A DNA stretch of 64,000 bases from Octopus vulgaris (Eukaryota), in NCBI GenBank assembly GCA_951406725.2, contig OX597826.1:30504001-30568000 (forward strand), written 5' to 3'. Position 1 is the first letter of the stretch. The number at the start of each line of letters is the position of its first letter. The translations under genes were made by a program, and so were the position numbers. This document shows positions 27,857 through 28,900 of this stretch, in pieces. Under the pieces are notes generated by a model, which was given only the letters and a program-made list of their open reading frames with translations, was not told where the DNA came from and made no database searches.

Positions 27857-27887
<31 letters not shown>

Positions 27888-27975
27888 ACGTCGGATGTAA
27901 TCAATTGAACCACACGCGTATTTATCGTTATGGTAAAATCTGGCGTGTGATTGAGTGGATTTCATCCAGATAGTC

Positions 27976-28051
27976 TTGGCTGACGAGCTACAAATGGATT
28001 TTTGTAAGTAATATTACATTTAATTCATTAATAGCGAAACAATTGTCCCAA
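27976..28051 (+). ncRNA. Type I hammerhead ribozyme, copy 1 (predicted GUC cleavage after 28047)
   Basis: ttgg-CTGACGA-GCTA...TAGC-GAAA-C AATT G-TC-ccaa; all core nucleotides intact. Confidence 0.82.
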
Positions 28052-28508
28052 AATAATCTGTATTTTTGTTATTTTTTATTTGCCCTGTCCGTGTGAGCTA
28101 ACAGTCGTACTGGCTTTCATGGGAAACATGTATTTTCGTGGTTGAAACCTTTTGGATTAACTGGTGCTAGAGTGAGCAATATAGTGACCACTCTCTTATA
28201 TTTATTTTGTAAAAATATTATAATATGTTATAAAATATTATAATAATCCAGGTTTCTCGTAGCACTAGGCCACTTGGTGTGGAATAAATATACTATTAAA
28301 TTAGTATCTAATTCTCTCACCCTTATTAATTAATTATAATTATGCTGCATTTATTTCTAAATGCTGTATTTGTTTTCCGTGAGAGTTTGGCGCGCTGTTG
28401 GTTGGGGCATTTGAATTATAACGTCGGATGTAATCAATTGAACCACACGCGTATTTATCGTTATGGTAAAATCTGGCGTGTGATTGAGTGGATTTCATCC
28501 AGATAGTC

Positions 28509-28584
28509 TTGGCTGACGAGCTACAAATGGATTTTTGTAAGTAATATTACATTTAATTCATTAATAGCGAAACAATTGTCCCAA
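28509..28584 (+). ncRNA. Type I hammerhead ribozyme, copy 2 (predicted cleavage after 28580)
   Basis: Same sequence as copy 1, 533 nt downstream. Confidence 0.82.
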
Positions 28585-28867
28585 AATAATCTGTATTTTT
28601 GTTATTTTTTATTTGCCCTGTCCGTGTGAGCTAACAGTCGTACTGGCTTTCATGGGAAACATGTATTTTCGTGGTTGAAACCTTTTGGATTAACTGGTGC
28701 TAGAGTGAGCAATATAGTGACCACTCTCTTATATTTATTTTGTAAAAATATTATAATATGTTATAAAATATTATAATAATCCAGGTTTCTCGTAGCACTA
28801 GGCCACTTGGTGTGGAATAAATATACTATTAAATTAGTATCTAATTCTCTCACCCTTATTAATTAAT

Positions 28868-28900
<33 letters not shown>

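Follow-up and report, generated by a model that had tools for sequence, protein, structure and literature searches.

A young, dispersed family of ORF-less hammerhead repeats in the common octopus with Penelope-like insertion footprints

The window analysed here is a stretch of 64,000 nucleotides on contig C13 of the 2.80-Gb octopus assembly in which our genome searches were made. It holds an insertion of 1.85 tandem units of 533 nt, with a GC content of 33%. An earlier note on this DNA had described a 455-bp block repeated 533 bp apart, and self-comparison of the window bears this out exactly: 27884-28338 and 28417-28871 are the same 455 nt with a period of 533. The 78 bp between the blocks had been taken for a unique spacer. 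They belong to the unit instead, and occur a single time since the insertion extends over 1.85 units. The flanking (TA)n that had been reported is there on both sides, and the unit is indeed without coding capacity, since its longest ATG ORF has 54 codons. The layout is as follows.

27814-27887, no strand: left (TA)n target
27884-28871, + strand: whole insertion, 5'-truncated at unit position 370 and with its 3' end at unit position 291
28048-28580, + strand: predicted 533-nt monomer, between the two predicted cut sites
28339-28416, + strand: 78 nt of which the insertion has a single copy (unit positions 292-369); part of the unit, not unique DNA
28868-28909, no strand: right (TA)n target

The predicted monomer folds far better than its shuffles (z -6.9; 0 of 100 shuffles). 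Two complete type I hammerhead cores had been claimed for the insertion, and both were found as described, GUC positions included. The cores CUGACGA start at 27980 and 28513 and the GAAA at 28036 and 28569, and C17 of the GUC lies at 28047 and 28580, which are the predicted cut positions. Helix I is UUGG/CCAA with an outer extension, helix II is GCUA/UAGC, and stem III has two pairs (A-U and C-G) with a palindromic AAUU loop.

27967-28060, + strand: hammerhead 1, type I, with an extended helix I, core at 27980-27986 and a predicted cut after 28047
27987-27990 with 28032-28035, + strand: helix II of hammerhead 1, followed by GAAA at 28036-28039
27991-28031 (second copy 28524-28564), + strand: 41-nt unbranched hairpin that extends helix II, from folding
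28500-28593, + strand: hammerhead 2, an identical copy with a predicted cut after 28580

Two parts of the first description do not hold. The stem II insert was said to be branched, but 27991-28031 folds as an unbranched, interrupted hairpin, and its distal stem is 98% paired across families. The ribozyme was also called minimal. According to the accessible text of PMC4209133, the minimal hammerhead of Penelope-like element (PLE) pseudo-LTRs is without helix III or loop 3 and has a short helix I, and its helix II of 7-8 bp is preceded by an unpaired base. Here a 4-bp helix II comes directly after the core, helix III is two pairs with a tetraloop, and helix I is extended, so as far as predicted pairing goes the hammerhead is canonical by those definitions and not minimal. 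A need for dimer folding is therefore possible but not implied.

A type I fold scan of the whole window finds these two hammerheads and one more at 47839. The covariance-model check that the earlier note proposed comes back empty, with no Rfam match at gathering score in the window and no hammerhead family at E<=10 in 27800-28950, probably because the long helix II insert defeats the models. In the circle as in the local sequence, the active fold is less stable than the minimum-energy fold by 5.6 kcal/mol, so the cleavage rate cannot be assumed. The hammerhead pattern is intact in 200 of 208 pieces from the 40 top-scoring loci. Two-sided changes affect 10 of the 21 pairs among 20 related sequences from sister families, and 90.7% of cells are paired there against 29-40% in slid controls; these sequences are kin, so that the counts are not independent events, and the structure was taken from the window copy, which makes the covariation support and not a probability.

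The unit is widely dispersed. The assembly gives 260 matches of 98-100% identity from the best 40 of 763 candidates, many of them in tandem, and matches lie on at least 25 contigs. A 30-mer across the cut site has 2,072 exact matches, against 0 for its reversed control. These numbers show the dispersed multimers that a genome-wide search had been expected to find, and dispel the concern that the duplication is an assembly artefact. Arrays reach up to 14 hammerheads per locus. We examined 77 loci: the top-scoring 40, another 9 picked because of a variant, and 28 sampled by position along contig C1. Of 32 C1 loci sampled by position, 15 have at least two hammerheads on one strand. The units of this positional set are about 93 to 100% identical to that of the window, so there are several subfamilies, of which the window's is among the youngest. 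This is a young, dispersed, mobile tandem family without ORFs and with a hammerhead fold in each unit.

The family is also carried by a DNA-type sequencing run with a second species label, in which another subfamily's variants dominate. A run labelled wastewater metagenome (X20) is listed with 74% of the sampled words. The flanks of the window insertion are uncovered in the sequencing runs compared.

There are older relatives as well. One sister family, colinear with the unit, has 1,549 candidates and a period of about 525. A further 1,984 hammerhead patterns with the same helix III and a long helix II occur genome-wide (control 17), and by these patterns they make up a clan of TA-targeting elements with several families. 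Families among them (L155-L184) end about 40/135 or 167/260 nt past the cut site. The window itself holds a second ORF-less hammerhead element in (TA)n at 47705-48145, with a short inverted head; it has 2,557 candidates at about 94% identity, two 3' ends 95 nt apart and a tandem period of about 500 in L124, and is probably another retrozyme family.

How these units entered the genome is recorded in their ends. Head-to-head insertions make up 43 of the 77 loci and one-arm insertions 33; the remaining 1 is complex. (TA)4 or longer stands at the 3' end of all 33 one-arm loci and also at the 5' end of 26 of them, and 39 of the 44 loci with both strands have (TA)n at both outer ends. At the 3' side, insertions stop at either of two TA-like sites, unit ~160 or ~290.

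28195-28212 (second copy 28728-28745), + strand: end site A, unit ~150-165, TA-like; the short 3' end and a putative reverse-transcription start
28321-28338, + strand: end site B, unit ~274-291, CACCC then TA-like; the long 3' end and a putative second start
28208-28338, + strand: the 'tail' of about 130 nt between the end sites, on one arm only in head-to-head loci

The window insertion uses the second copy of end site B, at 28854-28871. One arm ends at ~160 and the other at ~290 in all 41 classifiable loci of the 43 head-to-head loci (38 mixed by script, 3 more by reading, 2 unclassifiable), and like ends on both arms occur in 0 of those 41. Truncation at the 5' side is spread evenly round the unit (62 points, KS p 0.87). 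Linear cut templates would be expected to enrich 5' ends at the cut site, and only 2 of the 62 lie within 10 nt of it, which is not beyond chance. One locus, L065, has a target duplication of about 12 bases. At L241:2113-2192 some 60-70 nt of foreign sequence replace unit ~10-67 after the cut site on one arm.

These are familiar marks. The available part of PMC8557442 ascribes to PLEs a tail on one side, (TA)n targets and inverted copies truncated at the 5' end. A PLE protein, a predicted dimer, nicks and extends both strands in vitro and starts at two internal RNA sites, the distance between which is the tail, a signature called unique to PLEs in the part of PMC11167929 available to us. The two-end rule is footprint evidence for mobilisation by Penelope-like machinery.

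Such machinery is at hand. At least two intact PLE families, of 775 and 781 residues, are present in this genome with a reverse transcriptase (RT), a C-terminal GIY-YIG, a CX4CX2C linker and many near-identical copies. The RT piece of the 775-aa element has 100% identity in 150 of 150 scored matches. Its ends come in a short and a long form, about 30 nt apart, and one of each is found in 12 of 12 two-arm loci. This intact PLE follows the same end rule as the unit, although its assignment as the partner is not firm. The tail is about 130 nt in the unit and 30 nt in the 775-aa element; a CACCC before the long end is common to the unit, the 775-aa element and the sister families, and is the sole likeness of the unit to that element. 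PLE mobilisation, which the earlier note had only inferred, thus gains the support of the two-end rule, of (TA)n targets and of an intact PLE with the same rule.

The 775-codon family (L185-L204) is very young, forms full head-to-tail tandems with a period of 4,271 at L195 (G000:C8:53365500-53375400), and has a 454-codon frame upstream of the RT-endonuclease frame. Its hammerhead-like motif has the core CCGAAGA, and the same core change is seen in retrozyme locus L219. The 781-codon family (L105-L114) has a 504-bp repeat and a tail of about 30 nt, and its hammerhead-like motif, read by eye, seems to carry the U3-A8 core variant described in the accessible text of PMC4209133. The window has a decayed PLE-type endonuclease-region fragment of its own at 51143-51772 (+), without a Pfam match. 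It has a presumed Cys-rich linker and GIY-YIG-like motif. Following this fragment in search of a partner led only to decayed copies, with a longest frame of 371 aa among 150 scored of 5,019 candidates.

We think it probable that the unit is a young non-LTR retrozyme, whose transcripts are predicted to cut themselves, likely circularise, and would be copied by rolling circle into (TA)n by the protein of an intact PLE. The earlier note had predicted a retrozyme with a 533-nt monomer, and the family-wide evidence supports it. Transcripts would cut themselves at the hammerheads to release 533-nt monomers, and these would close into circles. A PLE RT-endonuclease dimer would nick both target strands, and reverse transcription would start at the two internal TA-like RNA sites, unit ~160 and ~290. 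Each RT would then make a varying number of turns on the template. A head-to-head locus would come from two products that are joined, and a one-arm locus like that in the window from a single product. Transcribed head-to-head loci would give long double-stranded RNA, open to ADAR editing that would destroy the core GAAA.

The most serious objection to this scheme concerns the circle. The unit could be a non-autonomous PLE passenger copied from uncut linear multimers, with the hammerhead kept for some other step or rarely cutting, and with uniformity produced by descent and gene conversion. We consider this unlikely, though several observations speak for it. In the available part of PMC11167929, uncut RNA is the dominant insertion substrate and ribozyme mutants left insertion unaffected in vitro. 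A further point against the preferred scheme is that only 1 of 9 frog retrozymes cleaved in vitro, according to the accessible text of bioRxiv 10.64898/2026.07.22.740005. That the active fold is not the minimum-energy fold is in keeping with the linear reading, as are contigs of sequencing runs that span the cut site.

The variants in the arrays speak to both sides. Four loci that were noisy, rearranged or masked (L046, L061, L211, L224) were dropped from the counts over the enlarged set of loci, where columns that were AT-rich or homopolymer were masked too. In the positional sample from C1 (54 units), units of the same array differ by 1.0 base and those of different arrays by 11.5; overall (181 units, 73 loci) the differences are 0.9 and 5.6. 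A variant is present in every covering piece of 9 of the 31 multi-unit loci in the first set, eight of them on both arms, and 16 fixed variants are private to one locus, in 14 of 64 loci. In L063 the variant 63C>T is carried by 7 of 7 pieces, spread over the two arms, and the genome has it only once elsewhere. Several array-fixed variants turned out to be lineage marks common to other loci once more loci were added, so homogeneity alone could come from homogeneous parents. Against linear templates stands the argument that linear copying with frequent 5' truncation only shortens arrays, yet many lineages have long uniform ones. The variant 336C makes the same point, since it runs through four consecutive units in L207 and at most two in its relative L070. 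So do the 70 single-unit variants, for despite them most arrays carry one haplotype. The 11 variants common to only part of an array favour the linear reading, as do L066 and L070, where two of these variants cross the arms and the outer units of both arms are alike. A single monomer circle leaves such partly shared variants unexplained, and therefore conversion or multimer templates must also act. Overall, array uniformity favours rolling-circle copying of one excised monomer as the likely rule, with exceptions, and the circle is likely.

Three other observations belong here. G>A exceeds C>T among single-unit variants, by 25 to 4 and then by 18 to 7 under stricter filters. One whole unit of a foreign subfamily sits inside an array of the window's subfamily at L040:3877-4473, and the change from one to the other falls somewhere from unit position 498 to 44, a span that includes the cut site; this single case is possibly a template switch or a mixed circle. 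A 563-nt contig from run X5 (533+30, a closed loop, with three variants of the commonest haplotype) was rejected as evidence of a circle, since tandem DNA gives the same contig.

Among the outcomes that the earlier note had named as refuting the retrozyme is that the unit might be merely the terminal repeat of an autonomous PLE. A version of this, in which 5' truncation left a pseudo-LTR that unequal crossing-over then multiplied in place as a satellite, has precedent in the pseudo-LTR model discussed in the accessible part of bioRxiv 10.64898/2026.07.22.740005, and PLE fragments do lie near 10 of the 75 loci screened by tblastn. We find it very improbable. No PLE ORF is contiguous with the unit in those 75 loci, about a tenth of some 760. 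The PLE pieces near L057, L068 and L231 are separate insertions, parted from the unit by microsatellite and other DNA, and in the other 7 the fragment lies, by coordinates, beyond the 3' end or the TA run. Units join head to tail without an ORF in the 77 of about 760 loci covered, and inversions carry fixed variants on each of their arms. Comparison of the unit with the two intact PLEs gives nothing significant (best E 0.053 for the 775-aa element, none at E<0.01 for the 781-aa loci), and no autonomous element with the unit as its repeat was found in 60 sister or clan loci with 1.5-kb flanks. L151 has a truncated PLE after a TA run.

Mobilisation by a LINE or another retroelement has hardly any claim left: LINEs that target microsatellites are abundant here (window 30532-36085 is an example) and the unit has no sequence link to a PLE, yet it has no poly(A) and no fixed single 3' end, and its two internal ends, one each per inverted pair, are the PLE tail signature of PMC11167929 (in its accessible part), reproduced by the 775-aa PLE. 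Non-LTR remains in the window are the following.

30532-36085, - strand: broken LINE with endonuclease (PF03372) and RT (PF00078) frames
29027-29630, 29896-30004, 54348-55520 and 59033-59951 (approximate): truncated LINE 3' pieces, beside (GATA)n runs
39680-40363, + strand: zf-RVT (PF13966) fragment of another non-LTR element

The preferred retrozyme reading also predicts double-stranded RNA, and two sequencing runs bear on this.

28546-28589 (equally 28013-28056), + strand: stretch with only A>G changes, core A14 and A15.1 included, in contigs of two probable RNA runs

A contig end from run X4 differs from 28560-28589 (30 letters) at 9 places, all A>G, which changes 9 of 15 adenosines, and one from run X15 differs from 28546-28575 (30 letters) at 10 places, again all A>G, in 10 of 14 adenosines; these are two single contigs from two studies, among the loose ends listed, and the kind of RNA in X4, X5 and X15 is our guess. 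The core GAAA has become GAGG in both. The adenosine follows A or U in 18 of the 19 changes, and C or G precedes 7 of the 10 adenosines left unchanged. ADAR has a neighbour bias that matches an A or U before the edited adenosine. The A>G form was not found as a family copy in the assembly, where its 2 matches both lie in an unrelated duplicated stretch. The contig ends are likely the product of ADAR editing, and the pattern points to + strand RNA in a duplex, as from a transcribed head-to-head locus. The A>G forms could come from host read-through transcripts. At window 28151, X4 and X15 also have one contig each that leads from a shared outside sequence through a TA run into unit ~104. This is one 5'-truncated locus, caught with its flank in two studies, perhaps as a read-through transcript. 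The edited site 516A>G occurs on two or three haplotype backgrounds. The idea that ADAR edits are written into the genome is unsupported, the locus-private fixed variants being 4 A>G and 4 T>C.

A bolder scheme can be built on the same material, and we hold it only tentatively, as something that may well prove wrong. One ribozyme-made circle would be copied at once by both halves of the RT-endonuclease dimer, each nicked strand priming its own TA-like site, so that head-to-head multimers arise in one event. The 775-aa element would be the enzyme, ADAR editing of GAAA would act as a brake on the ribozyme in vivo, and the clan of about 2,000 hammerheads would record repeated waves in the lineage.

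The octopus unit has, judged from its sequence, the properties of an animal non-LTR retrozyme, which is a known kind. It resembles those described in the accessible texts of PMC7229834 and bioRxiv 10.64898/2026.07.22.740005 in having tandem units without ORFs, every one with a single canonical type I hammerhead, as well as in low GC, dimers to multimers, dispersal, a strongly self-paired monomer and PLEs in the same genome. The mollusc case known from these texts is a mussel retrozyme of 350-390 bp. In the accessible main texts there is nothing on cephalopods or on A>G editing of the core, and no (TA)n target, head-to-head array or pair of fixed 3' ends is reported. The 41-nt hairpin extension on helix II is unlike the animal retrozymes described there. 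Circular expression has been demonstrated for the known ones, whereas the octopus unit is known from sequence. The earlier note thought the unit long for its kind. That is so against the 170-400 nt of Cervera & de la Pena 2020 (PMC7229834), but 533 is within the range of 51-972 bp given by Li, Clavereau & Pollet 2026 (bioRxiv 10.64898/2026.07.22.740005), again in the accessible parts of both.

Other systems share single features. EN+ PLEs, Neptune-type by their CX4CX2C linker (Craig et al. 2021, PMC8557442; Frangieh et al. 2024, PMC11167929), have the same 5' truncation and partial tandems, the same inverted 5'-truncated copy, a tail at one end, a (TA)n target and a hammerhead in the repeat, as far as the available texts go. 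The octopus unit differs from them in having no ORF, a tail of about 130 nt where theirs is 30-40 nt, up to 14 hammerheads per locus and a canonical ribozyme in place of a minimal one. Newt satellite 2 and axolotl HHR_Amex have the same short helix III with a palindromic tetraloop in tandem repeats, and the octopus sister families have a U-U mismatch at the base of helix II, as described for HHR_Amex2 (PMC7229834, accessible part). Compared with these amphibian retrozymes the octopus helix III is two-pair as in invertebrate motifs, the unit is longer, and the copies number about 2,000 against 126,000 (same source). The plant LTR retrozymes treated in the available part of PMC7229834 are alike in a non-coding RNA bounded by two hammerheads and a proposed circular intermediate. 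Theirs are type III with Gypsy-type footprints, against type I and PLE-type footprints in the octopus, where an LTR pair, primer-binding site and polypurine tract are neither expected nor seen.

The earlier note knew of no description of this family in octopus, and our literature searches on octopus or cephalopod hammerheads, retrozymes and PLEs, on the structure of insertions and on editing listed none; repeat libraries, supplements and subscription papers may hold one. None of the words hammerhead, ribozyme and retrozyme occurs in the main text of the repeat annotation published in 2026 for the common octopus (PMC13282606).

The case that both retrozyme papers make for PLE mobilisation and for rolling-circle copying is built on co-occurrence and phylogeny, and by their own account, in the parts available, the mechanism by which animal retrozymes re-enter the genome is still to be shown (PMC7229834; bioRxiv 10.64898/2026.07.22.740005). 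The octopus family is young enough to keep its insertion footprints, and an intact, near-identical PLE family is in the same genome. This pair of RNA and enzyme fits the published in vitro PLE assay, with predicted starts at unit ~160 and ~290 and multimers predicted from a circle. The family is ordinary in kind, and its unusually clear footprints tie it to PLE machinery, which makes the mechanism testable. It would add a source of circular and double-stranded RNA to its lineage. That lineage is noted for heavy RNA editing. Editing of the core is a candidate reason why circles with an exposed hammerhead would persist.
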